A stretch of DNA of 64,000 nucleotides from NCBI GenBank assembly GCA_001724265.1, contig MEDY01000134.1, positions 1 to 64,000 of the forward strand. Direction: 5' to 3'. The first letter of the stretch is position 1. Every line of letters starts with the position of its first letter. The DNA is from Rhizaria sp. SCN 62-66. Its lineage: Eukaryota. Of the stretch, positions 1-44,989 are shown piece by piece. The position numbers were made by a program, and so were the translations under genes. Below the pieces are notes generated by a model. It was not told where the DNA came from and did no database searches. It worked only from the letters and a program-made list of their open reading frames with translations.

Positions 1-2274
1 TGTACACGGTGACCTCAAAGCGCTCAACTTTGTCTGGGGCGTGGAGGCTCAGGATACTCGTCCGAGCGTCAAGGTGTCCGACTTTGGCAACTCGAAGCTT
101 CACGAGACTGCGAGGAGTCTGTCAGTGACCCCTGGTACGTTTAATATTGACGAATTAATTTCGATTTTCTGATAACGAAATAACATATCCAATACTAAGT
201 TTGTGTTATTTAGCTTTCTCTCACCTTTTGATTGATTATCTTCTCGCTTCACATGCGCGCGATAGTCTCGTCAAATACGGGCACGGTGGGATGGATGGCA
301 CCAGAGCTGTTGAACTTGACCTCCCGGCAGACGGCGAAATCAGACGTCTATGCGCTGGGCATGACTCTGTACGAGATTGCGTTTGGTGTTATGCCTTTTG
401 CGAACCTGCCTTCCAATTTGGTCCGGTCCTCCGTGCTCGGAGGTGCACGGCCCACAGTTGACATTAGTGACTTTGACGACGTGAAGAATGACGCGTTCCT
501 GTCAGGCACGGAGCCAATGCCGGAGCTGATTGAGATGATTCGTAACTGCTGGGACGCTGACAGCAACAAACGGCCTCACATCGATGCTGTCCGCGAGAAG
601 ATCGACGGACTTCCCAGCGATGAACGTGCCGTTCGCGACTTCATGCTAAAGATTCTTGGCCGCAGTCCACCTCCGCAGCAGCTCTCTGTTAGTGGCGCAG
701 ACTTCGCAACGCGTGCCAGCCCGGCCATTATTCGGCAAACGTGTTCGGATGACTCTGGAGCCGTAAGCCTTGAGAACGTGACTCCTGTGACCGAGCCTAC
801 CCCCGCGAAGTCAGGCAGCATTCGCGCTACCGCGCCGGGCTCCAAAGCCTCGGGCTCAGCACTGGGCCAGTCAGAGCAATATACTGCTGCCGACGACGAA
901 GAGGAAGGAGGGACTTTAGCTGTCAAGTCAGATTTTGTCACCTCTACAGCAAGCCCAAGCCAGAGGCCCTTTGCCGTGAAGCCAGCGCAGAACATGCATC
1001 TGCTGCCGGTGCCTGTCTCGCAGCAAGCGCGCGGCAACGACTTAACGCAGGAGGGTGTGTACCGGTTGCAGCAAGTGACGAAAGCCCACTCTTACGCGGA
1101 CTCCAGTGATGTCCAGTTTGACGTCATCTACGCGTCGCCGTCGCCGACCGGCATCGTGGGCAGCTCTTCGACGTTGAATGCGCCAAGTGTGCCGCAGCGG
1201 CAGAGCTCGGGGCCGATCTCGCTCGATGCACTGACTGTGGCCGCTAATCGGGGTGACACCGATGCGATTCGTCAGCTTGTGCACTATTACACGCAGCCCG
1301 AGTCGGGCCGCTATAGCGCGTTTGACGCCAAGAAGTGGATGAAGAAGTTGGTCGACGTTGACGGAAGTTTCAACTACGAGTGCGCGCTTTGGCTCATGTC
1401 GCACAAGCTTGACTTGGACGATGCACATTACTTCTTACAAACCGCCTTTGCGCTGGGCCACCCGCGTGCAGAGGGCGCGCTGGCGGCGCTCGAAGCTGAC
1501 CGTGCTCTGGCGCGCAAAACAGTGGATTCACTGAGTGACGCTCAAAAGAACGACATTGTTAAACGGTTATAGCGTGGCATTGAGGCCGGTGACACCGCGT
1601 CAATGTTTACTCTTGGCCGCGCAATGCACGACGGGCTTTTCGGCCTCAGTAAGAACAAAGAGGCAGGGAATGCAATGATGCTGCGTGCTGGACATGCCGC
1701 GGAAGGCGAGGACTTCTACGGCCCCGCGGCTGCGTACTACGCGAAGAGGAAGCACTCTGCGCCTCATCTCCGGGCTGCGGCAGAGGCGGGGCAGACCGAA
1801 GCTCAGCTCTCTCTGGGCGAAAACATCGCCGGCAGCGGCGACCACGTCACAGGGCTTAAGTGGGTCCACATCGCCGCCGATGCAGGCGACGTGTGGGCTC
1901 TGATTTGTCTCGCCGAGATAAGCTTCAACGGACTGTACGGACAGCCGCGTAGCACAACCGACTCGTTTGAGTATGCGTTCCGCGCGAGCTCGACGGAACA
2001 CCCCGCCGGGCAGACGGAACTGGCGATGCACTACGTGCTTGGGGCGGGCACCGCGCAAAACCAGAGGCTCGGCGCGGGTATGCTGCAGGATATCGTGAAT
2101 CGGACGGGCAACGACGAGGCCATCTACTGGCTCGCTAAGTGTATGGCTGAAGGATGGGGCGTTACGCGAAATTTGCGAGACGCCAAAGCTTTGCTGCAAA
2201 ACGCAGTACGTTGCGAGAAAGTTATGGATTTGTTTCGTCTCATTGACAGTTACCAAAGCAGGAGTCCCATGTGA
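1..2274 (+). CDS. TKL-type Ser/Thr kinase plus Sel1-like repeats, 5'-partial; exons <1-134 and 266-2274; one in-frame TAG at 1570-1572 (nonsense allele/pseudogene or readthrough)
   Basis: Frame 2 from base 2 reads VHGDLKALN...VKVSDFGNSKL. A phase-1 intron 135-265 (GTACGT...ATAG) joins it to VSSNTGTVGWMAPE...KSDVYALG. After a linker come Sel1-like repeats, which continue in the same frame past the TAG to TGA at 2272-2274. Clear paralogue of 13290-16663. Confidence 0.85.
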
Positions 2275-2626: not shown

Positions 2627-4270
2627 TTACTGTTGTCCGCCGTTCTTGATGACCTGCGCAAGCTCCTTCGCGGCCGCCGCGACCTTGGCATCCGCGCTGG
2701 CGCTCCAGTCGGCCGCCATATCGCCGACGCCCATGGCCTGCACGAACTCGTGCAGCGACACGGCGCCGTCGCTGTCGCCGCCGCCGCCGCTGCCGCCGTC
2801 GCCGCCCGCGCCGACAAGGAGCGTGCCGACGACGACGATGAGGCGGTAGAGGATCGCCGCGCTGCCCGCGCTGGTGACGTCGGCGCCAACGCCCGCGGCG
2901 AGCGCCTCAACGACGGCGTTGAGCAAGTAAACCTGCGCGTCGGTGACGCTCAGCGCGGGGTCGCGGCGCGGCGAGCGGGCTGCCAAGTCGAGCGTGATGG
3001 TGAGGTTGATCAGCACGGCCAGCGTCGACACTACGACGGGCTCGTCCGCGGCAAACCGCGCGAGGTTGTCTGCGCACAGGTCGACGATGTCGTCGTACGC
3101 ACGCGCCGCGAGAGCGCGCATCTTCATGCGGTCGAACGCGTTAGCGACTGCGCGGACCGATAGCACTGCCACCGTCTGCGTCGCGGCGCCCTTGCTCGCG
3201 CGGCACAGAGCGGCGAGCGCGTTGGGCGCACCCGCGCCGGGGCCCGCGCGCGGGATGGCCTTGCCGGCGCACAACCCGTCGCAGCCGGCGCCCGTGGCGG
3301 CGAGCCCGCGGACGAGGTGCAGTGCGGAGCCGAGCTGGTCGGCGGGCCAGGCGAGGAGCTGACCCACGGCGGCGAACATCTCGTCGTCAACCAGCAGCGG
3401 CTGCGAGCCAGAAGACGCGGCGGCAAGCGCGGCGCACAGCGCAAGCAGCGGCGCCTTGAGTGCGGCGGCGGACGCGAAGCCGGGGCTGTACAGCGCCTCG
3501 GCTACGGCGGACGCGTCGAGAGTGGCGGCGATCTTCTCCGCGACTTTGTCGTACATGACGGCCTTGTAGAACACCATCTCGCGCTCGACAAGCGGAAAGT
3601 GCACAAAGCGGCGCGCGTTGCGGCGGGTCTCCTCGGCCTCCTCGGCCAGCGCGTAGATGAGTGAGCGCATACGGTTAAGATCGACGCCGCGGACGGTCTC
3701 GCGGCACTCGCCGTCGGGCGCCGCGTAGAACTTGAACGTCGGGTACGCGGTAATGTCGGCGTGGCGCGCGGTCGAGAGCAGGCGCTCGCAGTTGACCTTG
3801 ATGAACACGGCGCGACCGGCGAGGGAAGCGGCGAGCTCGGCGAAGCGCGGGGCAACCATCTTGCAGGGGCCGCACCAAGTGGCGAAGTAGTCAACGGCGA
3901 CGGGGAATCCTTCCTTAAGCGCGCGCGCGAGCAAGGCGTCAAACGCGGCGTCGTCGGCGGGCTCATGCACAGTGCCAGTCGCGGCGCCTTTGGCGGCGGC
4001 GGTCGGGGCAGCAGCGGCAGCGGGGGCGGCGCCGGAGCCCATGCCACCACCCATACCGCCCATACCGCCGCCGCCGCCGCCGCCGCCGAGGGACTGCATC
4101 TTGGTGATAATCTTCATAAGCTCGGGGTCGCGCATGGCCTCCATAGCCTGGGACGGATCCGACATGAGGGATTGGAACTTGGCGAGGATGTCGGGGCGCT
4201 GCAGGAGCTCTGCGATCTCGGGGTCGCTCATCAGGCGCTCCGCCATCTGCATCATCGCGTTGTTATCCAT
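2627..4270 (-). CDS. STI1/DP-like domain + thioredoxin (WCGPC) + PUL-like domain protein
   Basis: The N-terminus has Met-rich DP repeats (LMSDPEIAELLQRPDILAKFQSLMSDP...MRDPELMKII), then a Gly/Ala linker and VDYFATWCGPCKMVAP. The C-terminal helical region starts HFPLVEREMVFYKAVMYDKVAEKI, resembling the PUL domain of PLAA/Ufd3. ATG at 4270, TAA stop. Confidence 0.8.
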   Translation of the reverse strand: MDNNAMMQMAERLMSDPEIAELLQRPDILAKFQSLMSDPSQAMEAMRDPELMKIITKMQSLGGGGGGGGMGGMGGGMGSGAAPAAAAAPTAAAKGAATGTVHEPADDAAFDALLARALKEGFPVAVDYFATWCGPCKMVAPRFAELAASLAGRAVFIKVNCERLLSTARHADITAYPTFKFYAAPDGECRETVRGVDLNRMRSLIYALAEEAEETRRNARRFVHFPLVEREMVFYKAVMYDKVAEKIAATLDASAVAEALYSPGFASAAALKAPLLALCAALAAASSGSQPLLVDDEMFAAVGQLLAWPADQLGSALHLVRGLAATGAGCDGLCAGKAIPRAGPGAGAPNALAALCRASKGAATQTVAVLSVRAVANAFDRMKMRALAARAYDDIVDLCADNLARFAADEPVVVSTLAVLINLTITLDLAARSPRRDPALSVTDAQVYLLNAVVEALAAGVGADVTSAGSAAILYRLIVVVGTLLVGAGGDGGSGGGGDSDGAVSLHEFVQAMGVGDMAADWSASADAKVAAAAKELAQVIKNGGQQ

Positions 4271-4739
4271 GATAACAAAGGGTCTACACAAGGATTATGA
4301 GAGGTGGAGCAAAGTATGTAACGATTCATAAAGTGTTTTTTTCGTACAAAGCTAGAAAGAAGAAAAAATGAAGGTTTCAAAGCACCACAAGGAATATCAC
4401 GAACTCCAGTGCTGTCAGCCGCTCAACGTCTCGAATGCCGATTGTATCAAGCTGGATGAAAGGGAAGATCACAGTTTCTCAGGGCGTAAAAAGCACAACA
4501 TAAAGAAAACATAGTAAATCGTAGCATACACAAACAAGACTCCATTCACACGCTCGCAATGCAACTATCGTATCGCTTTTTGGTTGGCTGACAAGGACGA
4601 TGTCAAAGCTGTAGCAGCAATAACTTTTGTGGCTAAAACGACATGTTCGGCTATATCAACATAAAACAAAGCAGAAGAGAAGCAGCCCAAGTAAATAAAA
4701 TTAGAGCGGTTGTATTTCTTGTTTATACCATGATATTAA

Positions 4740-10579: not shown

Positions 10580-11512
10580 TTAACACGCATTAAGAACATG
10601 TGCGGCTGACACAACGCCACCAGCGCCAAACGTAATCTTAAGCCCTAGCTTGCTGAGTTTGCTCTTGGCATCCGCGTGGCCACGACTTGCCGCCGCCCTG
10701 TACAGCTCAACAGCGGTTTCTGTGTCCTTCTTCACACCTTTTCCGCCCTCATAGAGCGTACCCAAGAAGAACATCGCCTCTGTCTCACCCGCCTTCGCCG
10801 CCTTCACGAGCATGTCGACTGCGGTCTTCGAGGAGGAGGGCAACTCCAGTTCACCACCCGATGCAAAGCTGTTAAAGACGTTTTGTTTGCGCTCCGTCTC
10901 TGCGTACAACACAGCGCCACGCACTTCGCCAGCTTCGAAGGCACGCTTGTACCACTGCATAGCAGTCTTGAACTCATTGATCCGGACGTAGAAGTTAGCA
11001 AGGTTGATCATCCCCGCTTCGTCGCCAGCGTTGGCTGACTTCTCGTACCAGTAGATAGCCTGGCTTGGATCGCCCTTGACGCCGTCTGCGTTCGAGTAGC
11101 AATAGCCGACCGGACAGTACGCCTCCGTGCATCCGGCTTGTGCTGCGGTGAGATACCACTTGAAGGCCTCCTCAGCGTTGTGTTCCAGACCTAGATCGCC
11201 ACGGTCATGCAATTGTGCGAGGTACATCATACAGCTTTGGTTGCCTCGGTCCGCAGCTTTGGTGAGCCACTTGACACAATCGGGCCCATAACGCTCCTCG
11301 TCGACATTTTTGGAAAGAAACTGGAAGACTGCCGCTGCACCACGTGCTGCGTCATTGTGACCCGCTTCGTGCGCGCGCGAAAACCATGTCACAGCCTCCA
11401 TTTGCCGCTCAATGGCCTCTGATGACGTGCCTGGAGCCTTTTTGACCAACCGTAGACCCATCAAGAAGAAGGTTTGACCAGGCTGCTCCTCTGCTGATCC
11501 GCACGCTCCCAT
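10580..11512 (-). CDS. Sel1-like repeat protein with predicted N-myristoylation/palmitoylation
   Basis: Repeated SLR motifs (AFKWYLTAAQAG, AIYWYEKSANAG, AMFFLGTLYEGGKGVKKDTETAVELYRAAASRG). N-terminus MGACGS has Gly2, Cys4 and Ser6. Confidence 0.9.
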   Translation of the reverse strand: MGACGSAEEQPGQTFFLMGLRLVKKAPGTSSEAIERQMEAVTWFSRAHEAGHNDAARGAAAVFQFLSKNVDEERYGPDCVKWLTKAADRGNQSCMMYLAQLHDRGDLGLEHNAEEAFKWYLTAAQAGCTEAYCPVGYCYSNADGVKGDPSQAIYWYEKSANAGDEAGMINLANFYVRINEFKTAMQWYKRAFEAGEVRGAVLYAETERKQNVFNSFASGGELELPSSSKTAVDMLVKAAKAGETEAMFFLGTLYEGGKGVKKDTETAVELYRAAASRGHADAKSKLSKLGLKITFGAGGVVSAAHVLNAC

Positions 11513-11697
11513 CTGTTAATTGGACTGAAAGGAGATTGGAGTTGGTCGTAGTGAAATCACAGTACATTGCACAAAACAATAAAAATGATGATAAGTGAGC
11601 TTTTGGTCTTGTGGCGTGCGACAACTCGTCAGCCGTTCCAACCAGAAGCTGGATCGTCGCCATCGCGACCAGTGTAGGTAGGTGGTAAAAAGTGGCT

Positions 11698-13289: not shown

Positions 13290-16200
13290 TTACCAGAACG
13301 AAGGCTTGAGCAGCTTATCAAGTCGCGCCATGGCTCCGGGATGCTTTTCGCAGATTCGCGAAAGAATCGAGATCGCCTTGTCCTTGTCCTTCTTCACACC
13401 GAGGCCGTCGGCATAGCACAGTCCGGCCTGGTAATGCGCCTCAGTCCAGTCGGGCATCGTCTCAGCAGTGCGCAAAATCAGCTCTGCGGCGCGATTCTTG
13501 TTCGTGGAAACGCCAATGCCGCGCATGTAGCACTGCGCCAGCGCCATTGCGCCTTCAGGTACGCCCTTTTCATTTGCTTGCCATGCCAGCTTAAACGCTC
13601 GCACCTTATCCTTGATGAAGCCGTACTTGCCTTCCATTGTGAGCATCGCGACTTTGGCCATTGCGCGTCCCGAGCCGTTTTCGACGGCGGTGGTCCACCA
13701 CCACATCGCGGCGTTGATACGCTCACGGCTTTCGCACTCATTGCCCAAAAGGAACTGTGCATCCACAATGCCGATTTCTGCTGCAGTCTGCAAATGCTCG
13801 AACGAACTCTTCTTCTCACCATAGTACGCTTGCGCAGGTCCATACGGAATTGCGCAGCTGCCTGCTTTAAGCTTAAGCATACGTCCACCCTGTTCGTCAA
13901 TTTGCAGCCCAAAACGTCCCAGTTCGCGGGCGCAGCCAAGCTCGAACATTGCTGCAGCGTCACCATCATCGGCGCCTTGCTGCAGCCGCTCGGTCAAGTT
14001 ACGAGCGCGCTCGTCGTGTTCCATCATCTCACCACAATTAAGACGCAGCGCGGCTAACGCGGCCAGCGCGCCACTGGCTTTGACGTAACCTGACACTTGC
14101 GCCCGTTGCAGCCACATCTCGGCCTCATAGAACTCAGTACCGCGCGCCATAAGCCACAGGGCGCACTCGTACGCACCTTGTGCGCACATCGCCGCCAGTT
14201 GACGCATCAAGGCAAGCGCGCGAGCCATGTTGTACATGTCCCAGTGGCCAGTGCTGTAGATGCGCACGTGCAGACGCAGTGCATCAAGAGAACCTCCGGC
14301 AGCCGCTTTTGCAAATAAACTCGCAGCGTTTGCACCCGAATGCTTCGAATAAGCACCGCCAAAAAAGCGTTTGCCATCGTTGTAAGCATCAATGGCAACT
14401 GATGTCGGTACCGGGTTATCCAGTGGCAGCTTGGCAATTTTATGGGGCTTCGACGCAGCTGAAGGTCGTGATGGCTTCGGCGGCGGGAGGCGCAGCGGCG
14501 CAGCCCCAGAAAAGGGGTTATCTGTCTCATACGGCGGTGGCGGTGGTGGCGGAGATTCATCTTTGCCATCTTGTTGTGGCGGCAGCGGCAAAGAGTCGCC
14601 CCAGGCGCCGCTCCCAGAGGGTGGTATCTGCGGCAACGGCATAATGGGGCGCGGCGACGCAGGACGGCGATGTGATGGCACAGCAGGCACGCCGAGCAAG
14701 ACTGCCGGTGCAGCAGGCACAGCTGCTGCGGACGCGGATTGGCTGATGATATCGAGCATCAGCGCGCGGACACTACTCTCGTCGCTTGGTAGATCCTCAA
14801 GTCGTTCCATAACTTTGTCAGCTGAAGGGCGAGACTTCCGGTCAGCAGCCCAGCAGTCAGCGATCAGGCTGAGCATTGCCGGCGACGGCTCTGTTCCAGA
14901 CAGCAGCGAGGGGAGCCCGTCGTCGTCGCCGTCGTAGTCGCTTAGGTCCAGCGAAGGGCGCGAGCCACTTGTCACCACTTCTTTGATCTGCGCGTTATTC
15001 ATCCTTTTGAATGGCGCGACACCGAACGCGATTTCGTACAGCGTAATTCCGAGTGCGTACACGTCCGACCGTGAGTTGTGGCCCAAACCGTTCATGAGGA
15101 GCTCTGGAGCAAGCCAAGCTGTTGTGCCTGATACGGAGTCTGTGTGCATAAAGACACAATAAAACGTATACGTACACACGAACAAATAATGAATTAGTTG
15201 AAACTAATGTTAGACGGCAACACGTCAACGCAATTCAAACAATGAACAAAAAAACAAACAACTTAAGCAACGATGTAACGCTACAAAGGAAGTACATGCA
15301 CAACATAATCAAAGGACATTGCAAACGAAAGATACGTACGATTACTTGAGCCAGTGGCAACCGACATGCTTTGCAGTGTTGACTGCAGACGCGAGTTGCC
15401 AAAGTCGGAGACCTTGACTACGGCGGTGGAGCCATGTCCCGCAACGTTCCAGAGAAAATTGAGTGGCTTGATGTCACCGTGTACAATATTTTTCTCTTTG
15501 AGAAACTGCACGGCGCAGGTCACCTGCCGCGCCAGCCACACGCGGCCCGCAGTAGGAACAAAACGATAGCCCTTGTGACCAAGCACGATGTTGAGAGAGC
15601 CAGCGAAGAGCTCCATCACGATGGCCATCCTGCCGCCCCTGCCGCCGCCAAAGGCGGTGTTGCCGGTAAATGGCGTGACAGTGAGACCACGGCAGCGCAC
15701 AACGTACGGAGACCGCAGGTTATAATGCACTTTAAGTTCTTCCATCACCTCATGATCGTGTTGCAGCGCATCAGCATTGGCGTCAAGCACTTTGAGCGCT
15801 ACTGCAACAGGCTCAGCAGACCCATCTGTGGGGGCGTACAGTGCGCGGTACACGCTTGCATAGCCACCGCGTCCGATAAAGCCCGCGCCGTGAAAGTCAT
15901 CGTACTGCAGCGTTGGGATATCTAATGGCTGCGATTTGCGCGTATCAGCCACGGGGATCGCAGCCACGGGTGAACTAACGGTATTGCCCACAAAAGTCAC
16001 AATCGAGAGAACTATTGTGTCTTTGATTTCTGCAAGACGCTTATGTAAAGTTTCAAATGTCTCCTTGATACCACTTGATAACACGATCCGGACAAGTGCA
16101 TTGCGCTTCTCTGTTTTAGTTAAGTAATCCTGACAGTCGCTTAGCACCTCTAGAAGATGTTCCAAAGCCATCCGATTGTTCTCAACAAGAGGCTTTTTCA

Positions 16201-16663
16201 TACCGTTGATGATAGCTACAAAATAGAAATAAACATGTGGCTGAACATGTGAGTTAGCGTTGTGCTCAGTGACTTTTTTATCGTTGAAATGCTAGCATTC
16301 TAGCGCAACACCAACAAGCATAATCAAAAACGACACGCAGAAACTGAATCGGGGGCGCAGGCTGAAATTGTTGAGCAGCTGTACAGAGCAGCTGTACACA
16401 CACTCTGTGTTGCGGGACTCGTCGAGTGTGCGTCGTGACAAACGCAACCGTCACAGCTTGCACACAGCTGGAAAGAAGCGGCCATCATACTGCCAACGGT
16501 GTCGTGTTGTTGTCATTACCTTGTACTCTCTATGAACACACGTACCCATGATGATTTTCACATCATTTCTCAAGGCGATGGCCTCCTCAGAATTACTCCG
16601 CTCGGTTTGCACAGCGTCATAGATGCGTTTTGCAACGTCAAAGGCCTTAATGAGCAAATCCAT
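13290..16663 (-). CDS. MLKL-like N-terminal four-helix domain + TKL kinase + Pro-rich linker + Sel1-like repeats (947 aa); exons 16663-16546, 16215-15340, 15139-13290
   Basis: Two phase-1 GTACGT introns restore one 2844-nt frame. Kinase motifs: GRGGYASV, VALK, HGDIKPLN, SDFG, GTTAWLAPE, SDVYALG. SLR motifs in the C-terminus. The N-terminal about 110 aa follow the MLKL_NTD-type pattern. Confidence 0.9.
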
Positions 16664-17284
16664 GCTGACTTACACACGTACGCGGTGGCTGCAGCGTGTA
16701 CCACGCGGTATTTGTTGTGGGATATTCGAAGAGACTGCGGCTGCTGGGTGGTAGAGGTTGCTGTGAGGATGGCAACGTTCGAATTTGACGAATTGTGAGC
16801 TAAAAGTACATTATCATAGTACACCATCTTCCAATCATAAATGAATCTGGTAATTTGGTGTGTGAGAAGATCTGTTACGACGAAATCAGCCGCCACTCCT
16901 GTGGTATTATTCCTCTCAAAGCGGATGTAGACCAGCGACTGCAGAGCCACGATGGTCATACTAGTAGCCCAAAAAGAAGAGGACACAAAGAGTCGAAGTT
17001 CGAGAAGAGAGCAAATGAATCCAGCAACAACAAAAAAATCAAAAAGACACCGGGCAAATAAAATGGGGCCAAACGACTGATGCTGCGTTGCTGGTCACGC
17101 ACTTCGAGGTGGCCATGGTACAGAGACACTGGCCAGAAGGTGCCTGACCAGGGGCAAGGGGGTCTGCCGGCCGCTAAGGAGGGTGATCTTGCTCAGACTG
17201 CGTCTCGCTCAAACGTCCGTCCTTTGATATACAACATTAAAAACAGACGTATATAGTGGGAGTTCGCTTAATTCTCTTTTTACA

Positions 17285-20200: not shown

Positions 20201-20727
20201 GCGGTCTGCGAGGTACGTTAAGTCGAAACGGCAATAACAATATGGGACAATATAGTTATGCAACGCATGATGAGTACCTGTATCGCAAAATAATCTCATG
20301 CTTAACTAAATCTTTTTTGTTTCCTCTTTAATCTTTGTTCATTTTTGTTATTACGTCATCACGCGCATTAATATAGCGGGAAGATAGTTTCTCCTCCGGC
20401 GCCTCAGTGCGGCCGTTGACCAACGCCCCGTGGGCGCCCTCCACGGCCCTGCGCGCGCGCCTGGCGCGCGTGCGCGGCGAAGTGGCCCGTGCGCTGTTTA
20501 ACGGCGGCCGTCTTGCCGAAGCCGAGGCCGAGCTCACGCGGGCGCTGGCGGCGGCTCCTGGGTTCGCTGCGCTGTACATCCAGCGCTCGCTTGTGCGCGA
20601 GCGGTTGACGATGCTCGTGGGCGCAATCAAGGACGCACAGATGGCCGCGCAGCTCGCGCCGGGAGACGCTGTGGCGAAGCAGAGGCTGGCGCTGTTGGCT
20701 GCCAAGTACGGCCGCGCAGTCGCGTGA
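17285..20727 (+). CDS. TPR-repeat protein, TTC16-like; exons 17285-17325, 17433-17521, 17649-17899, 18107-19249, 19445-20212, 20377-20727
   Basis: Five GTACG...AG introns give a continuous frame. The N-terminus EEAMTCFSRAIYLQPNVAVFHAYRGDCCLALCDLTGALASYRKAL resembles TTC16, and further TPR motifs occur throughout. Confidence 0.8.
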
Positions 20728-27521: not shown

Positions 27522-28389
27522 CGAGTACGCTGTGGGCAAAGTTGAATAGAACAATACACAGCAAACATCATGAGATACAATCATCACTATCTTTGGTAAA
27601 ATACTTGATAATATTATATATTTTGATTATACTTCTTTTTGTTGACATCTAGGCCTCCTAACACTCGTGCAAAGAGACTGAAGGGATGGAGAGTGCTTTC
27701 AGTTTGAGTGGCCACAGAAAGTGGCGTCAATCACCAACCTCCGCAAAAGCAAATGAGATATAATAAAGTGAAAATACATAAACGCAAGTTTTCATAGCAA
27801 AGCCCAGTCAGAATTCTTGTTTTAACGATTGTTCACGGCTGGCAGGAGTGAAACAAGATGAAGGTCGTGAGTCTTGCAGTGGTCGGATTTTTTACGAACC
27901 CGCCACAGCCCATTTTCTGCTGACTGGCTGGCGACGAGATGGTGACCTTGATCGATCACGATCTGGTTCTCGTTCTGATCATCATCACGCGGTTTGTCAT
28001 TGAACAATGACGAAGAAGTGACAGTGTTTGAATTGGATTTATTATTGCCTGCGCTTGGACTAGCTGTTCTACCCGTCTATATCCTCCTGCCCCACGTCAG
28101 CCGATCTGATCGACAGCCGCTTCATGCCTCGCCTACAAGACGCTCTACAGGGTTGCATAAGCTAGGAACCTCTTTGTAAAGCTGTTTACAGCCCTGCAAA
28201 CCGACGCGTGTGCACGCTTATACCAGTAACTTTTGCTTACTCTATCATGTCCGCTCGGTCAGACCACTCACCAGACACCTCCTTCCTCCCCCGTATTCGC
28301 ACACCCTTCCCCCTTTGCCTCCCTCTCACCCACTGATCCTGAAACGCTTTTTCCCTGACGCCTCGCTTGCTCAGAAAGCGCTTGATAGG

Positions 28390-31300
28390 ATGCAGAAGAA
28401 CTCTGTCATGCGCGAGGCGATGCGCGCGTTCAACTCGCAGCCGCTGAACCCTCCGCAGTGCGTGACGATTCTCACCTCGATCATGTTCCTCATGCACCAG
28501 GGGGAGGAGTTCACCCGGGAGGAGCTGCGCGACCTCTTTTTCGCCTGCACCAAGCTCTTCCAGACGAACCACATGTACCTCCGCCGCATGGTGTACCTCG
28601 TCACGAAGCAAATCGCTCCCTGCATTCCTCCTTCCGAGTCCCTCATCATCATCAACTGCCTCAACAAGGACATGATCTCCACTTCCGACGTATTCCGCGC
28701 CAACGCCACGCGCGTGATGCCCAAAGTCATGGATGGCAGCATGGTTGCCAACATCGAACGCTTCCTCAAGCAGTCCGTCGTGGACCGCAACCCCCTCGTG
28801 GTGACGGCCGCGCTCGTCGCGGGCGCTCAGTTCCTCAAGACCGCGCCCGAGGTGATCAAGCGGTGGACTGCCGAGTTGCAACAAGCGCTTGAGTCGCCGT
28901 ACCCGCTCGTGCAGTTCCACGCGCTTTCGCTCATCTACCGCACCAAGATGGCGGACCGCGTCGGCTTCCTCAAGGTCCTCGCCCAGTGCTCGCAGACGCA
29001 GACCGCGCCCCGCGCCACGCTTCCGCTCATGCTGCAGGTGCGCACGGTCGCGCGGCAGCTCCGCACGGAGGCGACGCCCACGCCCGCGCTGCTCGTATTC
29101 CTGTTCGAGTGCCTCAACTCCTCCGCGCGCGACGCCACGGGCATTGTCACTCTCGAAGCCGCGCGCGGGCTGGCCGCGCTGCACTCCCTGTCCGCGGCCC
29201 AGATGCAGCCCGTTGTCGTCGTTTTGGCCTCCTACCTGGCGTCCAACGTCGCCGCCGCGCGCTTTGCCGCCGTCCGCACGCTCGCCGACGTGGTCACGCG
29301 GTGGCCCGCGCTCGTTGTGCCGTACGCCGCGGCGCTGGAGAAGCTTGTCGCCGACCCCAACCGGTCCGTGGCCACGTACGCAGTCACGACGCTGCTCAAG
29401 GCGGGCGCCGAGGGCACCATTGACCGGCTGCTCAAGTCGCTTGTGACTTTTATCGCGGAGGTTAACGACGACTTCCGCATCGTGCTCATTGACAGTATCC
29501 GCGATTTGGGCGCGAAGTTCCCCCACAAACACGCCGCTTTGCTGCGGTTTCTGCTCGCTGCGCTGCGCGTCGAGTCCGAGTACGCCGACAAGTGCGAGTT
29601 CCTCTACCAGCGCGCCGTCGTAGACTGCATGCTCGGCATCTGCGACGCTGTGACGGAGTCCCGCGAAGTCGCCGTAGACACCTTCGCCGAGGTCATCGAG
29701 GACTGTGAGTTCCCCGAGCTCTCCGTCGCAGTGCTGAACAAACTCGCCGAGGTGGGCCCTCTCACCCAGCGGCCGGCGCGGCTCGTCCGCTTTGTGTTCA
29801 ACCGCGTTTTGCTCGAGAAGGCCGCCGTGCGCGCGGCCGCCGTGACCACGCTCGCCCGCTTCGGCCTCGCACTGCCGGCGCTTGCTGGCTCCATCGCGGA
29901 CCTGCTGGCGCGGTGCTTAACCGACAGCGACGACGAAGTGCGTGACCGTGCGACGATGTACCTCGCTTTGCTCCGCCCTGCGTCCACCGCCGCCCCCGGT
30001 AACACCACTGCTGTGTCCTCGCCCGTCGCTGCTGCTGCTGGGGAGGCGTCGGTTGATGCGTCCGCGGATGAGACCAAGAGCAACGACAACAATGCACCCT
30101 CCGTTTCTAACGCCGCCGCGTCCACTGCGACTGCAACTGTGAGCGCCGGTGCCCGCGATCGTGCGCTGAAGATGCTCGTTGACCCCATTGCAGTGCGCCG
30201 CGCCGCGCCGGCCAAGGCCACTTTCGCCGCCGCCGTCGCCGCCACCCCGAACATCACCTACTCCAGCGCCAGCGCCGATGCGGCTGCAGCTGTGCCGGCA
30301 GCTCTGGTCGCTCCCGGCGAGCCTGCCGCCTGGGGCGGGCCGTCTCTGCCCGCGCTGGCCGACCTGCGTCACTCTCTGCAGACGTACCTCGCCGCCGCGG
30401 GCGCGAGCGACGAGGCCGCGGCCGCCGAGCCTTTCTCGCTCAAGCAGCACTTTGTGCACGCGCCCGTCGGCCCGGCGCCGCTGTCGCCCGCCGCGCGGTC
30501 GCCGCAGGCCGGGTACGAGGCCGCTGTCGCCGCCGCCACGGCCTCCGCCGCCGCGCCGGCCTCCGCCGCCGCCTCCGCCGCCGCCGCGGCCGCTGCAGGG
30601 GATGGCCTCGCCGACACCGACGCCGCGCTCACGGCACTGCTCGCCGCCGCGCGCCCCGTGCTGCCGCTCGACGCATTGGCGCAACAGGAGCCGCTCTGGC
30701 GCGTGGCGGACCCCGTGCCGTTGGCCACCGCGGAACTGGCCGTCGAGGTCACCAAATACGTGTTCAAGCAGCACGTCGTGTGCGCTTTTAAGGTCGTCAA
30801 CAACCTGCCCGACGCGTCCTTAGCGAAGGTCGCGGTCGCGCTCACGGATCCCTCGGGCCGCTGGGTCACCCGCGCCGCCGCCGCCGCGCCCGCGATCGCG
30901 GCCAACGGCGGCGCTGGCATTGCGTATGTGGTGCTCGCGGCCGCCGACCCTCTGGCGCTGCTGCGGCCCGCGGCGCTGTCGGCGCAGCTCAACTTCACCA
31001 TGGTGACTGCAGACGGCGGGGAAGACGCGGATGAGTACCAGCTTGAGCCCGTCGCACTGCGCGCCGTCGACGCCATGCGCAGGCTCACCCCGGCCAACGC
31101 TGTCGGCGTCGCCGCATTCAAGCAGCAGTGGGAGGCCGCTGGGGCGGAGCGCGAGGCCGTGCGCAAGCTCAGCGTCCCCGCCTCATCACTATCGGCCGGC
31201 GTCGCGCTCATCGTGCGCAGGCTCGGCATGATGTCGTGCGACGGCGCGCCCATCGCCGTGCCCGCGGAGGGGCAGTCGCATGTTCTCATGGCGCAAGGGT

Positions 31301-31434
31301 TGACTTTGGGCGGGCACCCGGCCATCGCGCGGCTCGGGTTTATCTTCGACGGGCGGGGCGTGACGTTCAAGTGCGCGATTCGCGCGCCGTCGGTGGAGCT
31401 GGCAGAGGCGCTTGCGCAGGGGCTGTTGCAGTGA
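28390..31434 (+). CDS. COPG: Coatomer subunit gamma (exact start uncertain)
   Basis: AFNSQPLNPPQCVTILTSIMFLMHQGE...LFFACTKLFQ...LRRMVYL; NRSVATYAVTTLLK; IEDCEF; DSDDEVRDRA; appendage KYVFKQHVV and DEYQLE. Confidence 0.95.
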   Translation: MQKNSVMREAMRAFNSQPLNPPQCVTILTSIMFLMHQGEEFTREELRDLFFACTKLFQTNHMYLRRMVYLVTKQIAPCIPPSESLIIINCLNKDMISTSDVFRANATRVMPKVMDGSMVANIERFLKQSVVDRNPLVVTAALVAGAQFLKTAPEVIKRWTAELQQALESPYPLVQFHALSLIYRTKMADRVGFLKVLAQCSQTQTAPRATLPLMLQVRTVARQLRTEATPTPALLVFLFECLNSSARDATGIVTLEAARGLAALHSLSAAQMQPVVVVLASYLASNVAAARFAAVRTLADVVTRWPALVVPYAAALEKLVADPNRSVATYAVTTLLKAGAEGTIDRLLKSLVTFIAEVNDDFRIVLIDSIRDLGAKFPHKHAALLRFLLAALRVESEYADKCEFLYQRAVVDCMLGICDAVTESREVAVDTFAEVIEDCEFPELSVAVLNKLAEVGPLTQRPARLVRFVFNRVLLEKAAVRAAAVTTLARFGLALPALAGSIADLLARCLTDSDDEVRDRATMYLALLRPASTAAPGNTTAVSSPVAAAAGEASVDASADETKSNDNNAPSVSNAAASTATATVSAGARDRALKMLVDPIAVRRAAPAKATFAAAVAATPNITYSSASADAAAAVPAALVAPGEPAAWGGPSLPALADLRHSLQTYLAAAGASDEAAAAEPFSLKQHFVHAPVGPAPLSPAARSPQAGYEAAVAAATASAAAPASAAASAAAAAAAGDGLADTDAALTALLAAARPVLPLDALAQQEPLWRVADPVPLATAELAVEVTKYVFKQHVVCAFKVVNNLPDASLAKVAVALTDPSGRWVTRAAAAAPAIAANGGAGIAYVVLAAADPLALLRPAALSAQLNFTMVTADGGEDADEYQLEPVALRAVDAMRRLTPANAVGVAAFKQQWEAAGAEREAVRKLSVPASSLSAGVALIVRRLGMMSCDGAPIAVPAEGQSHVLMAQGLTLGGHPAIARLGFIFDGRGVTFKCAIRAPSVELAEALAQGLLQ

Positions 31435-35837: not shown

Positions 35838-38800
35838 TTAGACAAAGTGTTTGCGGATGACCCTATTGAGCAGCGCGACGGCGTCCACAGCGAGCGTCTC
35901 ATCGAGGATGAGGAAGTTCGCGTCAGGCGCCGCCCGTTCCCCGCGCTCAGCGGAGTCGCGCCCGTTGCTCTCAATCGCGAGTAGCTGCTCGAGATCGATG
36001 TCGGCTGGCACGGGGAGCACTTTCCCTGCGGTCACAGCGGGCCCTGCGGCCGCAAGGCGGTAGAGACCGCGCTCGAGCTCGGTGAACGTCCACGCCAGTG
36101 CGCGCAGCTCAGCGGGTTTCACCAGCGGCGACACGCGAGCGATAACGCCCTTGTTCACCAGCACCATGTACGTGTAGCTGCGCCACCGCAGCGGCGCGCG
36201 CGCGCCGTTCGCCGCAGACGCAGACGCAGCAGCGGCCGCAGCGGCAGCGGGCCCAGAACCCGTTGCCGCCGTGTGATTCGCGGTTGACTTCCCGGACAGT
36301 GACCGGGCCCTCGCCGCCGCCGCCGCTGCCGCCGCGACCGCCGACGGGCCGTTGTTGGTACTCGCAGCAGCGGGATTCGCGGTGTTGGCGGTGTTGCTGC
36401 GCGAGCCAGCCGCCGCCGCAGCAGCAGCGCGCGCTCCGCCGTGCATACACGCGTCTAAGTACGCCTCATACGTCGCCACACGGTCATTCAGCCGCACTCC
36501 ATGCGCGTCGACGACGGACAACACCGCGCCGAGGTGGCGGATGCGCTGCCGCGTCTCGGCCAGCACATGCGCGCGCGTGGGCAGCTCTGACAGCCACTGC
36601 GAGACCCACCGCGCGCACACGCGCTCGGACCGCGCGCAGCCGTCGGGAGCGACCTGCACTACGGCGCCCGGCGCGCTGAGGCATGCGCGCACGGTCGCCA
36701 CGGTAAGTTCGGTTGCGCTCGCGCCGCTGCTCCGGCTGCTGCTGCCGGCGTCGACGTGCGACGCCTGTGCTGCAGAGCTGAACTCGGAGGCGCGAAGAAG
36801 TTCGCCGTGCTCTGGAGCGCTGCGGGGCGTGCACAGGGCCTCGAGCATGGCGACGACGTCGGCGACCTGCTTCGAGGGGCGGAAAGCGGCGGCCGCGGCG
36901 GCGGAGGCCTCGGCGAGGGAGGACGCCACAGCCGCAGCGCCCACCGCCACACCGGCGATATTCCCCACCACAGGGCACGCCGTGTTAACGCCGTTGGCGT
37001 CAGAGACGGTGGTCGTATTAGCAGGCGCGGCGGGGTCGAGGACTGGGGCGGCGCAGCGGGCGCATTGGAGGCCCGTTTCGCCCTCGAGCGCGTCTGCGGG
37101 CGCCGCGGGGACCGCGACGGTGGCGCCGACGCTCCACGCACAGCTCGGGCACAGCACGACGACAGCGGGGGCCGCGGAGTCACAGGTACCGGCACTCATG
37201 GGGGAACTCGAGTTGAGAGACAGAGTAGCGGCGCGTGAGTTACGGTCCCAGTCAGGGTCACTATGCGCTCGCACCCACGGCAAACTCGCGCGCAGAAACC
37301 GCAGGAGCGCGGTCACGGGGGCTCGCGCCGCCCACCCGTCCGCGCCAGGCGGGCCCGACACGGGCGCTGAACCAGAGACTGAGCCTACAGCAGAGGCGGA
37401 GGCGAGGGCAGTGGGCTCGTCGTCGTCCTCCTGCAGCTCAGGCACCGTCGCAGGCGCATAATTCGATACATTACCAGAGACGGAGGCCGGGACTGAGGCA
37501 GAGAGAGGAGCGGATGTAGACGCAGATGCAAAGACCGCGGGGGTGTTAAGGTGAGACGCGACCGGGATGGGCACCGCGCGCGAGGCTGCACGGCGGAGAT
37601 CAGGCGCGCTCAACGCGTCCAGCGGCGGGAGGTATCGCAGCACGTCCAGTAAACGCCCGTAGACAAGCATGTCCGAGGCGTGGGTCGCGGCTTCGGCGGC
37701 GGCGTCGGCGGTGGCAGCCGCGCCCGCGCCGCCGAAGCCGCCACTGGGGCCGCCGCTGTGGCCGCCGCCGAGCGTGCTGTGTGAGTGGCTGTGCATGCCG
37801 CTGACGCTGACTTCCCGCGATGACCCGTGGTGGTGATGCAGTAGGTGGCCCAGCCCCCCAGCACGTGCAGTGTAGCTACCCGCACCCGCACCAGCGCCAG
37901 CGCCAGCGGTATTGGCATTACTCCGCTGCGCCGCAGCGCCGCCGCCGCCGTTGTTGCGGTGGCGCGAGGGCGACTGCGAGCGCGAGGGCTCACGCGTACC
38001 ACCATGAGTGCTGCTGGTACCCGTGGTACCCGTGGCCGGGCGGCGGCCGTCTGGCGAAGGGGACGACGACCGTGCGCGCGCCCAGTCTGCGCCGCTGTTG
38101 TTGGCGCTCACGCTCCCAACGTTGTTGTTGATCACGTTACTGTCGGTACCTGTGAGGACGCGTGAGGACGCGCCGCGCGCGAGGAGGATATGCGCGGACG
38201 GCAGCGAGCGCGCGAGCGCGGACGTCGTGATGCCGTTGTTGACGGCGCCAGCGGCCGCCGCTGCTGCAGCTGCAGCAGCGTCGGCGTTCAGACTACCGCA
38301 GGGAACACCGTTACCAATCGCCATGTTCGCGCTGGCCCCGCCGTTGCCGCCACCGAAGGCAGCAGCAGCGGAGGCGGTGGAGTCGGCGGCGCAGGCGGCG
38401 ACCGCGGCTGCGGCGGCGGCGTTCGTGGCCGCGACGGTCGACTGTACCGCGACCTGCACCGTGCTTGGGTCGCGCGGGCGCAGCACCAGCGAGCTCTGCA
38501 GCGCGGCGCGCTCGTCGTCGGCCGACAGCGCAGGCAAACCGGGGAAGAACACGGCGAGGCAGCGGCGGACTTCGCCGAGGCCGGTGCGAGATAAACCGCG
38601 TGAACCGGGATAGGACGTCGTCTCCGCGGGGGCCGCTAGAGTGCCGTCGGGGCTCGTCGCAGTCGTTAAAGGCGCGAACTCGGCCTCCCAGGCAGCGTCT
38701 TCGGCGGCGCGCGCGCGCTCGGCTTCCTCGGCGTCGTCGTCCTCGTCGTCGTGGTCACTGTCAGTGTCCGAGGCGGTGGCATTCTCGGCTTCCTCATCGC

Positions 38801-41800
38801 CGTCGCCGTCCGCTGCGTCGTCGCGGTCATCGCTGTTGCTGTTGTTGTTGAGGTTCAAGCTGCTGCTGTTGTTGTGCAGGGACGCGAGGGCGAGCGCAGC
38901 GCGGGCGCGGGCGGCGTGGGCCTTTGACGCCGCCGCCTTGCTGTTGTGACTCTTATCCGCGGCGCTCGAGTTCACAGTCACGGTCGTGGTGCTGACCGCA
39001 GTCGGAGTCGCGGGAGTGCCACCGTCGCCGCCGTTGCCATGCGCGCGATTGTTGTTGTTGTTGTTGTTACTGGCGGCGTTGGCGAGGCTCGCGAGCGGAC
39101 TGACCGTCTGGGCCAGCAGCGACACGCGGCGGAAATGACTGGCGTTGATGCCGCGCGCGCGGGCAGTGGCGACTTCGCGCACTTGGCTCGACGCCATGCC
39201 GCCGTACACAGGCTGGGCGGGCGTCGCCGCGGGCACCAGCGACGGGGACACGTGCTCAGAAGCACTGGAGACAGCTGTCACATTCGCAGTTGCTTTTGGA
39301 GATGACGTGTTGTTGTTGTCAGCAGGAGAGCCAAGCGACTTAACTTTGCTGTTGCCAGTGCGCGAGACACTCACAGACAACTTGGCCTGCTGATTGACAC
39401 TGCTAGCATTGCCACTCTTGTTTTCGCCGCTGTTGTTCATTGAGCAGACTGAGTCACTGCGCAGCGCCGCGCGCTCGGTCTCGGCGTCGACGCGCACCAC
39501 GGCGGCCATGTCGTCGAGTCGCGCGCGCAGCAGCAACAGCAGGTTATACAGCCGGCCGGCAGAGGAGAGCACGGGCTGCTGCGTCCGCAGAAGCCGCGCC
39601 AGCGCCAGAGTGTCCACTTCGCTCTCGTTCTCTCTCGCAGCGCTTGAGGCGTTCACATTGGCGTTGTTGCTGTTGCTCTGGGAGGCTGAGGAGAGGTGGC
39701 CGACGCCGACGCTGCCGGCCGTGTTTTGTTGTTGCTTGACAAGAAGCGCAGCGAGCGGCTCGACCATCGTGACGCGGCGGAAAAAGGCGCGCATTCGTGG
39801 CACGTGTCTGTCGATAAAGTCGTTACACGTGGCCATGTGTGGCTCCGAGGCCGCGTTGAACGGGTGCCCGTTGGCGATGCGCTGGACGAGCCGCGCGAGG
39901 GTCACGAGTGTCTGTCGCGCGTACCGGCTCGGCGCTGTTTGTAGCAGTTCGAACGCGTGGGGGGTCACGAGAGCCGGGTTAAGGATGCGCAAGATGAGCA
40001 GACTCCCGACGAAAGCGTACTCTTCGTCCTCAGCGAGGGCGGGGAAGCGCGCGCGGGCCGTTTCGGCAATGCGGCGGCACACCCAGCGCACGCCGTGGGG
40101 GAAGGAGTCCGCGGAGAGATATAACGCGGTCAGCAAACGCTCGGCGACTGCGAGCAAGACGGCCTAAGGAGCGCGAACGGAAATGAAGATTACACGATTG
40201 AGATAAGTGAGAAATGGGAATATCAAAAATGAATTCGATAAAAAAATAAGAAGATACACTGAAATATCAAGTTGATATGGCGCAATAGAAAGATATTTGT
40301 TGCTAAATTAACGTACTTGGCGGAAGTCCCTCTCCGCTGCGAGCACGGGCAACGACGCCAGAGCCGTTTGCTCCGCAGACGCGAGGGACATTGCGGCGCC
40401 GCTGCCACCGCTGTTGCTACCGTCACTGCTGCTGCTGTGGGTGCTGGCTTGCTGTGCGGCTGCGGCGGCGGCTTTGTACGCAGCAACCACGCCCTTGACG
40501 CTGCTGCAGTCGTTCTGCGGACTCGGTGGCGATTTGCTGCTGCTGTTGTTGTTATTGTTATTCGCACTCGAGCTCGAGTGGTTGGGCGTGTGCTGCTCCC
40601 AGTCCAGCACCAGCGCCTGCGGCCTCAGCTCCAGCCGCAGCTGCAGCCCCGCCGTGGCCTCGGCATCCTCCGCGCTGGCCCCCGGCAGCACAGGCACCGC
40701 CACGCCAGCGGCCTCCGCGCCCGCCGCGACCGTGGCCGCGGCCAGCCAGCGCACCGTGGGGCCGAGCACCTGCCGCACCGCGGCCAGCCCCGCGCCGCGG
40801 CGCGCGTAGGCAGTCAGCATCGCGCTCAGCGGCGAGTTGCCGCGGAGGAACGTACCGGCGTCGTTGCACTCCATCGCTTGGTGTGTGATGGCGCCCGCGA
40901 AGAGATCCAGCAGCGCCTGCTCCAGCGCGCCGTCGGCCGGGTCGCCGAAGAGCTCCAGCACGACGCTCTGCACCAGCGCGTCGGCGCGGCCGAAGGACAC
41001 GATCCAGTCGGCGGAGTCGCGGCCGACGACATGCGCGAGGGCAGCCAGCAGTCCGGGCCGCCGCTGCAGCACGAAGACGAGCGCCTCGGCCGCGCCGCGC
41101 TGGGCGCGGGACAGACGCAGCGTCTGCGGCTCAGTGGCAGCCGCAGCCGCCGTCGCAGTCCCACCAGTCGGAGCCGCCGCAGCTTGCGCACCGGCGGCGT
41201 TGGGGCCTGTTGAGGAGGACTGGGACTGCGCGGGCGCGGGAGTGATGCCGAGCTCAGTGGCGTTGGGGGGCAGCGAGGCGCCCATAGGCCGCGCACTCGC
41301 CGCCGCCGCAGCAGCAGCGGCGGCGGCGGCAGCGGCGGCGGCGGCGGCAGCTTCACGCTCTTTCGCGGATTTGCTGCTGTTGCTGCTCGAGTTGTTGTTG
41401 TTATTACGGGCAGTGGCAACGTTGTGGATGTGGAGCTGGATCCGCGAGTCTAGCCCCGCGACGGTGCGTTCGAGCGCGAAGTTGCGCTGCGAGGCCCTGA
41501 GCGCGCGCAGTCGCAGCGCGGCGGCGCGGGCGCTGGCGCGGTGCAAAGACAGGGCGGCGGCGGCGGAGTCGGCCCGGAGACACGCCAGCACGGCCCTGAG
41601 CGAGGCGACGGTGACCGCGCCGGCGCCGCTCCCGCCGCTCTTGGACTGGGGGTAAGCGTGCGCGTGGCCGTGGCCGCCGCTGAGGGGGTGGCCGTGGGCG
41701 GAGGTCGCGGCGGCGGCGGTGGTCGGGGTCAAGGGAACCGAGGCGGCGGCGGCGGCGGCCAGCGCGAAGCTCGCACTGCTGTCGTTCGCAGCCGCAGTCG

Positions 41801-43583: not shown

Positions 43584-44989
43584 GCCCGGTTACAGGTGCA
43601 AATTACGGCAGGCCGTAGCAGGGTGCACTGCGGAGAGAAGGGCACTGACCCGGGAACTGGGGGGAATGGACTGGCCCGAGGACCTGATACGGTCACTAGG
43701 CGGGGCAAGAGGGCGAAAGGAAACGCACCAGCAGGAGGGCGAAATAAAAGATTTAGCAAATAGAATTGAAACATCGCATTAAAAAAGAGATTAACAATAG
43801 AACAAAGACATTGCACGCAGTTTTGACAATGGCGAGACCGGGAAATCTCATTAATCAGGAGAGTCCAAATCCACTTGCTCGCTGTCTGCAGTGCCCGCCC
43901 GTGGCCACCACTCGCAGAACAAAATAAAAAAATAAAAAAAATGGGTCACTGGTCACAAATTGCCGTCACGTCCACCACCAAAGAGCAGAGACAGCAACTT
44001 ATCTGGACATTATGTCAATATCTAAAGCAAAGCAAAATCACTTTTTTTTTTTAATTTTTAAAACTGGCTCTTGAACTTGGCAACAGCAGGTGTAAATTCG
44101 TTGAATCAGAGTTTTATCACGGAGCGCAAAGCACCATTCACGCGTCGTCTTAGCTGCGCTGCTGTTCCACACGGCGCAGTTCGCCCCAGCTAATATTTCC
44201 AGGGCACAATCTAGCTTTGACTATGTGCGTTGCTGATCTCTGGCGCCCTGACCGGGTGACTGAGACACTGAGACGAGTCCCTCCTAAAGTTGACTTGAAA
44301 TTTAACTTGAGTATGAATGACGTTTGTGACATGACAACGACGCACCGCGTCACTCAAATTAATGTTGCGGAGGTTGCGACTGTGACCACGGAGACCTTTA
44401 TAAGTTAGGATCATTTCGCTACGGTCTTAGGGCGCAAGAGTCCGCATGATCAAATGAACACCGGCACTTCAAGTTGCTAGATTTGCAGCTGTAGAAGCTC
44501 GTAGACATGCGTCACGTCTAGCTGCTCAAATTTTCAGACAAGAAACAAAACAGGGTATTGCAAGAGTTACTAAGGCAACGGGCTAAAAAACCTGTTAAAA
44601 ACGATTAAACGACGAAGAGGAGCAATTTCATATGTGGTTCCCGGTCCCTATTGCGTCTTTTTTTTTTTAATAAAAAAATATTCCCGCGAGTCAGCTGTCG
44701 CGAGACGGCGGTCCGTGAACGCAAAACTGCGACCAGCGCGCAGTCATCGTATATTCCGCCAAACAGTTCACGAAGAAGTGCAATAGGTATTTCGCTTAAC
44801 AAAAAACTTTTCTTCTTTATACGACTTTCTAACTTCTCAATCTTCCCCGTTTATTCGCTGCAGTCCGTCTCCTCTTTTTCCCCTCCCGCAGTGAGACGCA
44901 TCCCTCCCGTCCCCCTTACTTCCCGACTCCCCCGCAGCCCACCTCCGGCCCCGCGCGCTCCCTCCGCCCCGCCCCCGTCCGCGCGCGCC

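Follow-up and report, generated by a model that had tools for sequence, protein, structure and literature searches.

Does an uncultured protist carry, in a single gene, an MLKL-like executioner head, a working protein kinase and a repeat sensor? This question is raised by a 64,000-nucleotide stretch of contig MEDY01000134.1 (Rhizaria sp. SCN 62-66), referred to below as the window, where a predicted gene on the minus strand at positions 13290-16663 joins a helical N-terminus to a kinase and to C-terminal Sel1 repeats. Our analysis indicates that this is a real nuclear gene of an uncultured, intron-poor and GC-rich wastewater protist, which is expressed and codes for a kinase fusion protein. 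Taken as a whole, its product is best explained as an MLKL_N-related head of about four helices followed by an active kinase, a disordered linker and a Sel1 solenoid, a reading that we regard as evenly poised between right and wrong.

The gene model comprises three exons, whose joined coding sequence of 2844 nt translates into 947 residues without an internal stop codon:

13290-16663, minus strand: the kinase-Sel1 gene, in three exons.
16546-16663, minus strand: exon 1, with the ATG at 16663, 39 codons and the first base of a split Ala codon.
16216-16545, minus strand: intron 1 (predicted), 330 nt, phase 1, with a GTACGT donor, a pyrimidine tract and a TAG acceptor.
15340-16215, minus strand: exon 2, which completes the N-terminal helical domain and, after a short linker, encodes the kinase from its Gly-rich loop up to a point halfway through the activation loop.
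15140-15339, minus strand: intron 2, 200 nt, phase 1, GTACGT...CAG, interrupting the kinase activation loop; its joint is seen in a complementary DNA (cDNA) contig.
13290-15139, minus strand: exon 3, coding for the kinase C-lobe, the Pro-rich linker and the Sel1 repeats, with the TAA stop at 13292-13290.

The original prediction had joined exons 1 and 2 into one frame, and the same join was recovered here from the coordinates: both the phase and the split codon G|CT (Ala) agree, and the joint reads ...KIIM-A-IINGMKK.... Read in frame, intron 1 contains two stop codons. The predicted eukaryotic origin likewise holds, as the spliceosomal introns and neighbouring genes such as those for coatomer gamma, RasGAP and Tfb2 place the stretch in a eukaryotic host.

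Is this model reflected in transcripts? The stretch is present in wastewater and activated-sludge sequencing runs, four of which were aligned to it: three from libraries labelled cDNA (X1-X3), which an automatic classification described as "RNA? (probably DNA)", and a fourth (X5), which covers the whole stretch without breaks, as expected of genomic DNA. A biofilm run (X4), in which only 0.05 of the words occur, was left aside. The contigs of X1-X3 carry exon bases only, between 13250 and 15966, with parts of exon 3 among them, and never cover intron 2. Furthermore, one X1 contig splices 15340 to 15139 exactly, with 80 and 160 matching bases on either side at a depth of 2.3, and its junction shows CT..AC ends on the plus strand. 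Intron 2 is confirmed, and exons 2 and 3 are transcribed and spliced; the support is real but thin, coming from one contig at this depth. Other contigs of X1-X3 match over 18-25 nt at the GC-rich spots 15632-15649 and 14913-14941, or end beside them, and then diverge into loose ends of 52-255 letters of unrelated sequence; these probably come from other family members or from other organisms of the samples.

Both introns of the gene begin with the hexamer GTACGT (15334-15339 and 16540-16545), which is enriched in the window, with 39 sites against 20.5 expected and a count of 39 reached in none of 100 shuffles. Further examples lie at 135-140, 20213-20218 and 40311-40316, and others near the ends of long open reading frames (ORFs). 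GTACGT looks like the preferred splice donor of the organism. The exon 1-exon 2 junction is predicted from the phase, the context of the ATG, the acceptor tract and this donor hexamer, which is identical to the RNA-verified donor of intron 2. The original prediction had proposed RNA sequencing for both junctions, of which the intron 2 joint was found in the cDNA contig and the exon 1-exon 2 joint lies where there is no cover: no contig of X1-X3 falls within 15967-16800, which holds exon 1, junction 1 and the 5' part of exon 2, and with a patchy depth of 2-6 in these runs this gap is uninformative.

Might the gene be shorter and lack exon 1 altogether? Translation would then start at the Met of ...INGMKKPLV... 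(ATG 16200) or at the next Met, as in the database call P0008, and the head would be reduced to a two-helix hairpin of about 75 residues. The gap in RNA cover just described fits such a model, as does the called start of P0011, a paralogue fragment, which aligns with the INGMKKPLV Met, although the starts of database fragments are choices of a gene caller rather than evidence. Exon 1 alone returned no family match in the Pfam scan (E<=1), and a second GTACGT lies at 16676-16681 on the minus strand, 13 nt 5' of the exon 1 ATG; a frame using this hexamer, however, has no ATG. The upstream hexamer is probably due to chance or part of the 5' untranslated region (UTR), and it may serve as donor of a 5' UTR intron. 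Exon 1, on the other side, has an ATG in good context (A at -3, G at +4) with an in-frame TAA two codons upstream, as well as the verified type of donor, the right phase, and a pyrimidine tract before an AG acceptor. Of the helices predicted for the N-terminal domain, it encodes the first and the N-terminal half of the second, its first 18 residues being amphipathic (hydrophobic moment 0.56), and it fills exactly the approximately 50 residues that are absent from the MLKL_N alignment discussed below. We thus regard the shorter gene as improbable and continue with the three-exon model, in which the protein is organized as follows:

15977-16663, minus strand: N-terminal helical domain, residues 1-119, split by intron 1, with a weak MLKL_N match.
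14805-15892, minus strand: protein kinase domain, residues 148-443, split by intron 2, with a Pkinase match above cut-off.
14361-14804, minus strand: Pro-rich linker, residues 444-591.
14529-14552, minus strand: PPPPPPPY motif in the linker.
14511-14519, minus strand: NPF motif in the linker, six residues after PPPPPPPY.
13293-14360, minus strand: Sel1-repeat region, residues 592-947, matching PF08238.

Does the kinase work? Both the exon 2 product (70.8 bits) and the exon 3 product (52.1 bits) exceed the cut-off of 31.7 bits for Pkinase (PF00069). The motifs follow one another as GRGGYASV, VALK at 178 (K181), HGD at 285 (D287), DIKPLN, DFG at 310, APE at 342 and CW...RP, which we take to be the subdomain XI motif of the TKL/TK type. 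The stretch from DFG to APE, both motifs included, counts 35 residues, 12 of which are Ser or Thr. Across the six aligned family members, the Lys, the alpha-C Glu, H-x-D, the second Lys, the Asn and DFG are invariant, the middle motif being HGD in five and HRD in one, and on account of its HGD the kinase is classed as non-RD. Judged from these residues, the domain is most likely a catalytically competent, TKL-like Ser/Thr kinase of the non-RD type. When compared with solved structures, the family profile gave 16 matches at E<=1e-12, which comprise EGFR, ULK1/2/3, JAK/TYK2, NEK7 and ABL1.

C-terminal to the kinase, 33 prolines within residues 441-590 mark a linker that is probably disordered. 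Its PPPPPPPY and NPF motifs presumably resemble the binding motifs for WW and EH domains found in trafficking proteins; both are absent from the linker of a paralogue at the start of the window, described further below. The Sel1 region follows, for which PF08238 (cut-off 30.7 bits) scores 38.5 bits in two stretches on the exon 3 product and 44.1 bits in three stretches at E<=10 on the C-terminal 356 residues alone. At least three Sel1 repeats are thus recognized by Pfam, and others are degenerate. The original prediction of an intact kinase with VALK, HGD and DFG and of C-terminal Sel1-like repeats is therefore borne out by matches above the respective cut-offs, and the gene model together with Pfam places a helical head, a motif-complete kinase and Sel1 repeats in one polypeptide, as had been proposed.

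The decisive question concerns the head: is it an MLKL-type bundle? About four helices are predicted for it, spanning residues 2-20, 26 to about 45, 47-82 and 89-119, from two AlphaFold2 models, of which one is of low confidence and the other has a predicted local distance difference test (pLDDT) score of 71. In a scan of 24,736 Pfam models, the sole family found on the N-terminal region at E<=10 was MLKL_N (PF22215; gathering cut-off 27 bits, profile length 142), with 20.4 bits (E 3.7e-4) on the exon 2 product alone and 22.0 bits (E 1.2e-4) on an in-frame read-through consisting of exon 1, the intron with its two stops written as X, and exon 2. In the alignment, residue 49 of the spliced protein corresponds to profile position 50, which puts the spliced N-terminus at about profile position 2; from this register, exon 1 has the length of the first ~50 profile positions that would otherwise be absent. 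The domains also follow the order seen in MLKL: the helical head comes first in the chain, and a kinase fold comes next (Pkinase from about residue 148-151). Furthermore, a protein-language-model search (Atlas) gave MLKL_N for three of the four nearest Pfam-named clusters (0.86, 0.82 and 0.81, where scores below 0.9 are leads only), the fourth being DUF7708. These MLKL_N clusters come from oomycetes and plants, and the 30 top clusters of the search (0.93) carry no Pfam name.

Several results weigh against an MLKL-type head. The MLKL_N score lies under the gathering cut-off, and the alignment covers only profile positions 50-110 of 142; the 28 residues that follow the head (120-147) form a Val/Pro/Ser-rich linker, and a brace-like segment between head and kinase was not recognized. 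Exon 1 by itself, as said, has no Pfam match, and its junction with exon 2 is without RNA cover in X1-X3. Second, P0011, which is the sole relative with N-domain and kinase in one ORF and whose N-domain aligns with that of our protein at 23% identity, has neither an MLKL_N match at E<=1 nor a named Atlas match, and its Atlas model resembles generic helical hairpins. Third, wider sequence comparisons gave no MLKL. The read-through N-domain had no match at E<=10 among the sequences of solved structures, a profile of the two N-domains found a tRNA methyltransferase as its best match in PDB sequences (E 0.49), and an exhaustive phmmer search with 100 N-domain residues against 1.84 billion representatives gave no other matches than the ORF fragment of the window itself and a ZinT-repeat protein, which is spurious. 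Among longer proteins, the two-N-domain profile brought back just its two input proteins out of 534 candidates. Fourth, neither MLKL nor RIPK is among the 16 best structural matches of the kinase family profile.

In structure prediction, the AlphaFold2 model of the read-through, with its 110 intron-encoded residues, is unusable (mean pLDDT 38.9), and the exon 2 part of the head was modelled as two long helices in a generic hairpin (pLDDT 71.2). For this hairpin Foldseek found no significant PDB structure: of 287 hits, none reached E<=0.001 and none was MLKL; the nearest, insignificant ones were coiled-coil arms and designed hairpins. When the peptide of exon 1 was co-folded with that part of the head which exon 2 encodes, the score was 0.02 against a mark of 0.34, in a run without controls that counts neither way. 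Thus, where the original prediction had proposed AlphaFold and Foldseek for recognizing a four-helix bundle, the models of the read-through and of the exon 2 part gave neither such a fold nor an MLKL match. Its assignment of the N-terminus to the MLKL/HeLo/RPW8 type fared better in part: MLKL_N is the sole Pfam match, but below the cut-off, partial and without a counterpart in P0011.

An alternative is an ordinary signalling kinase from a lineage-specific expanded family. Its head would be a coiled coil or helical module of a generic kind that serves regulation or dimerization and is unrelated to MLKL, with the MLKL_N match arising by chance from composition or helicity, the Sel1 region acting as a scaffold for signalling partners, and no lytic or immune role. 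The sub-threshold match, the silent N-domain of P0011 and the plain hairpin of the exon 2 part all suit this explanation, as do a kinase that is motif-complete and conserved as in a working enzyme, neighbours that are housekeeping genes rather than an immune cluster, and the kinase/Sel1 expansions of Rhizophagus, which one report interprets as signalling (PMC6123716). It accounts less readily for an E-value of 1.2e-4 in a scan of 24,736 models that yielded no rival family up to E 10, for a register in which the spliced protein begins where the profile begins, and for MLKL_N being nearest among the named Atlas clusters. We consider the signalling kinase a serious possibility, though one that falls short of even. 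As to the head itself, the sequence comparisons make us lean modestly towards homology of the N-domain with MLKL_N.

A different topology was also considered, in which the protein would be a receptor-like transmembrane kinase with residues 107-126 spanning the membrane, so that the head would be exposed outside and the kinase and Sel1 region would lie in the cell interior. The Kyte-Doolittle hydropathy, averaged over a 19-residue window, does peak at these residues with 1.63; this value is borderline, however, and the stretch contains Asn, Ser and Pro. No signal peptide is present, P0011 has no comparable stretch (maximum 0.86), and AlphaFold2 puts residues 107-126 at the end of the last long helix. 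Being of borderline hydropathy and not conserved in P0011, the segment was rejected as a membrane span, and we hold the receptor-like kinase to be very improbable.

How does the preferred reading, an MLKL_N-related head on an active kinase with a Sel1 tail, compare with known systems? With MLKL it shares a helical head of about 115 residues at the very N-terminus, followed by a kinase fold, MLKL_N being the sole Pfam match of the head. In contrast to MLKL, which is a pseudokinase (PMC10951266), its kinase keeps every catalytic motif; moreover, the protein has a Pro-rich linker and a Sel1 solenoid in addition, and no brace is recognized. Since its kinase is not a pseudokinase, the protein falls outside MLKL proper as known from animals and Arabidopsis. 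A closer parallel in this respect might be wheat Pm13, described as an MLKL_NTD joined to a motif-complete Ser/Thr kinase and associated with cell death (PMC10951266). Like Pm13, our protein possibly joins an MLKL-type head to a kinase with all key catalytic residues. Unlike Pm13, a plant resistance gene with a clear MLKL_NTD and no C-terminal repeats, it has a weakly assigned head, an appended Sel1 region and a protist host.

The Sel1 repeats, in turn, recall arbuscular fungi. Among the early-diverging fungi surveyed in one study, MLKL-family homologues (TCDB 1.A.105) were reported only from Glomeromycotina, where they carry Sel1 repeats (PMC8778642), and the expanded genes of Rhizophagus include some with kinase and Sel1 motifs, interpreted as signalling (PMC6123716). 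Our protein resembles these in uniting MLKL-family-like sequence with Sel1 repeats and in its lineage-specific expansion (PMC8778642, PMC6123716). The fungal match may be via the N-terminal head or via the kinase only (PMC8778642), and, as a difference, our organism has GC-rich coding sequence. Given Pm13 and the Glomeromycotina homologues, an intact kinase or Sel1 repeats beside MLKL-like sequence are not unprecedented, and the two reports correct the earlier background statement that animal and plant MLKL carry a pseudokinase and no repeat sensor (PMC10951266, PMC8778642). The combination of MLKL_N, kinase and Sel1 in a protist was not found in any paper of the open-access literature searched.

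A further comparison concerns the logic of the whole chain. Fungal HeLo/HELL proteins and NLRs (HET-S, HELLP) combine an N-terminal effector with a NACHT or NB-ARC NTPase and with TPR, ANK or WD repeats. Our protein is reminiscent of them in that a single chain possibly runs from effector through switch to repeat sensor, and in a superhelical, TPR-like C-terminal repeat. Unlike NLR or STAND proteins, it has a kinase in the middle position, and Pfam scans of the products of exons 1 to 3 showed no NTPase family. We regard the likeness to NLRs as a resemblance in possible working rather than as membership.

Does the gene stand alone? A database search among proteins of near length returned six proteins among 1835 candidates, namely the window's own fragment and five relatives of 40-57% identity, all six being ORF fragments from eukaryote-like contigs. 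The gene is a member of a lineage-specific kinase-Sel1 family. A word-index search among longer proteins gave three weak generic kinases out of 5066 candidates and no full-length record of the gene. Two relatives lie within the window itself:

2-2274, plus strand: paralogue cut by the window start, with kinase C-lobe, linker and Sel1 region (tblastn, Pfam).
10580-11515, minus strand: stand-alone Sel1-repeat gene (Sel1 112.6 bits), 25-29% identical to the Sel1 region of the kinase-Sel1 gene, starting with MGACGS.

The paralogue at the window start is 31% identical to our protein over the kinase C-lobe, linker and Sel1 region, and its GTACGT donor at 135-140 matches the place of intron 2 in the activation loop; its upstream exon is the database fragment P0014, one of the five relatives just named. 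Within its Sel1 region it has an in-frame TAG at 1570-1572, where our gene has CAG (Gln); a pseudogene, a truncated allele or an error of the assembly could each account for this stop. Reading of TAG as Gln seems unlikely for this organism in view of the long ORFs that run without interruption elsewhere. The start MGACGS of the stand-alone Sel1 gene presumably resembles a signal for N-myristoylation and palmitoylation, and its product is possibly a membrane-anchored relative of the Sel1 tail.

Kinase/Sel1 genes and housekeeping genes also differ in composition. The GC content at third codon positions (GC3) is 0.49-0.67 in the former (13290-16663, 271-2220 and 10580-11515) and 0.78-0.87 in four housekeeping ORFs (2627-4294, 28180-31434, 35838-40163 and 44609-46960), with the N-terminal head lowest of all (GC 0.42, GC3 0.49). 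Low expression, fast turnover or a different origin could cause this. The tandem paralogue with its premature stop, the stand-alone Sel1 gene within 17 kb and the lower GC3 are signs of turnover in the family. The other neighbours are ordinary eukaryotic genes, coding for a thioredoxin/PUL protein, a MIF4G-like protein, coatomer gamma, RasGAP, PAP2 and Tfb2. Rfam and transfer RNA scans of the window gave no match.

Further afield, 80 loci were kept from metagenome contigs, all of them kinases of 23-38% identity found with kinase patterns that proved too generic, and tblastn of the spliced N-domain against these loci gave nothing below E 2. Contigs of giant and other viruses held 54 loci with distant kinases of 20-40% identity. 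None of the 134 metagenome and viral loci matched the N-domain or the Sel1 region at E<=1e-3, and thus no viral or bacterial source is suggested.

How might such a protein work? In our model, the Sel1 solenoid would bind a protein partner or ligand, and this binding would relieve autoinhibition or cluster the kinase. Serving as the switch, the kinase would then phosphorylate its own Ser/Thr-rich activation loop, as seems probable, or a neighbouring molecule. Phosphorylation, in turn, would free the N-terminal bundle, which would oligomerize and serve as the output module. Each of these steps, from Sel1 binding through the kinase switch to the release of the head, is an inference. That the output would be membrane permeabilization or cell death, or that the role would be an immune one, we consider doubtful. 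The fullest version of the model, a death switch of a free-living protist, appears unlikely at present: Sel1 repeats would sense a viral, bacterial or damage ligand, the active kinase would take the place of both the RIPK3-MLKL pair and the NTPase of an NLR, and the MLKL-type bundle would permeabilize membranes, amounting to a necroptosis-like abortive-infection defence in one polypeptide, drawn from a birth-and-death family.

What, then, does the locus mean? The gene codes for a kinase fusion protein whose head is possibly of the MLKL type and whose tail is made of Sel1 repeats; a role in cell death is a plausible proposal for it. If the head should be unrelated to MLKL, the gene would be one more member of a lineage-specific expansion of signalling kinases and of local interest only. 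If, in contrast, the head is a true MLKL-type bundle, an MLKL-like executioner module would exist in a free-living protist, within the same protein as a working kinase and a repeat sensor. This would bear on the origin of necroptosis-like death and of the kinase-fusion resistance proteins of plants, and would offer a simple one-protein system for studying how phosphorylation releases an MLKL-type head.

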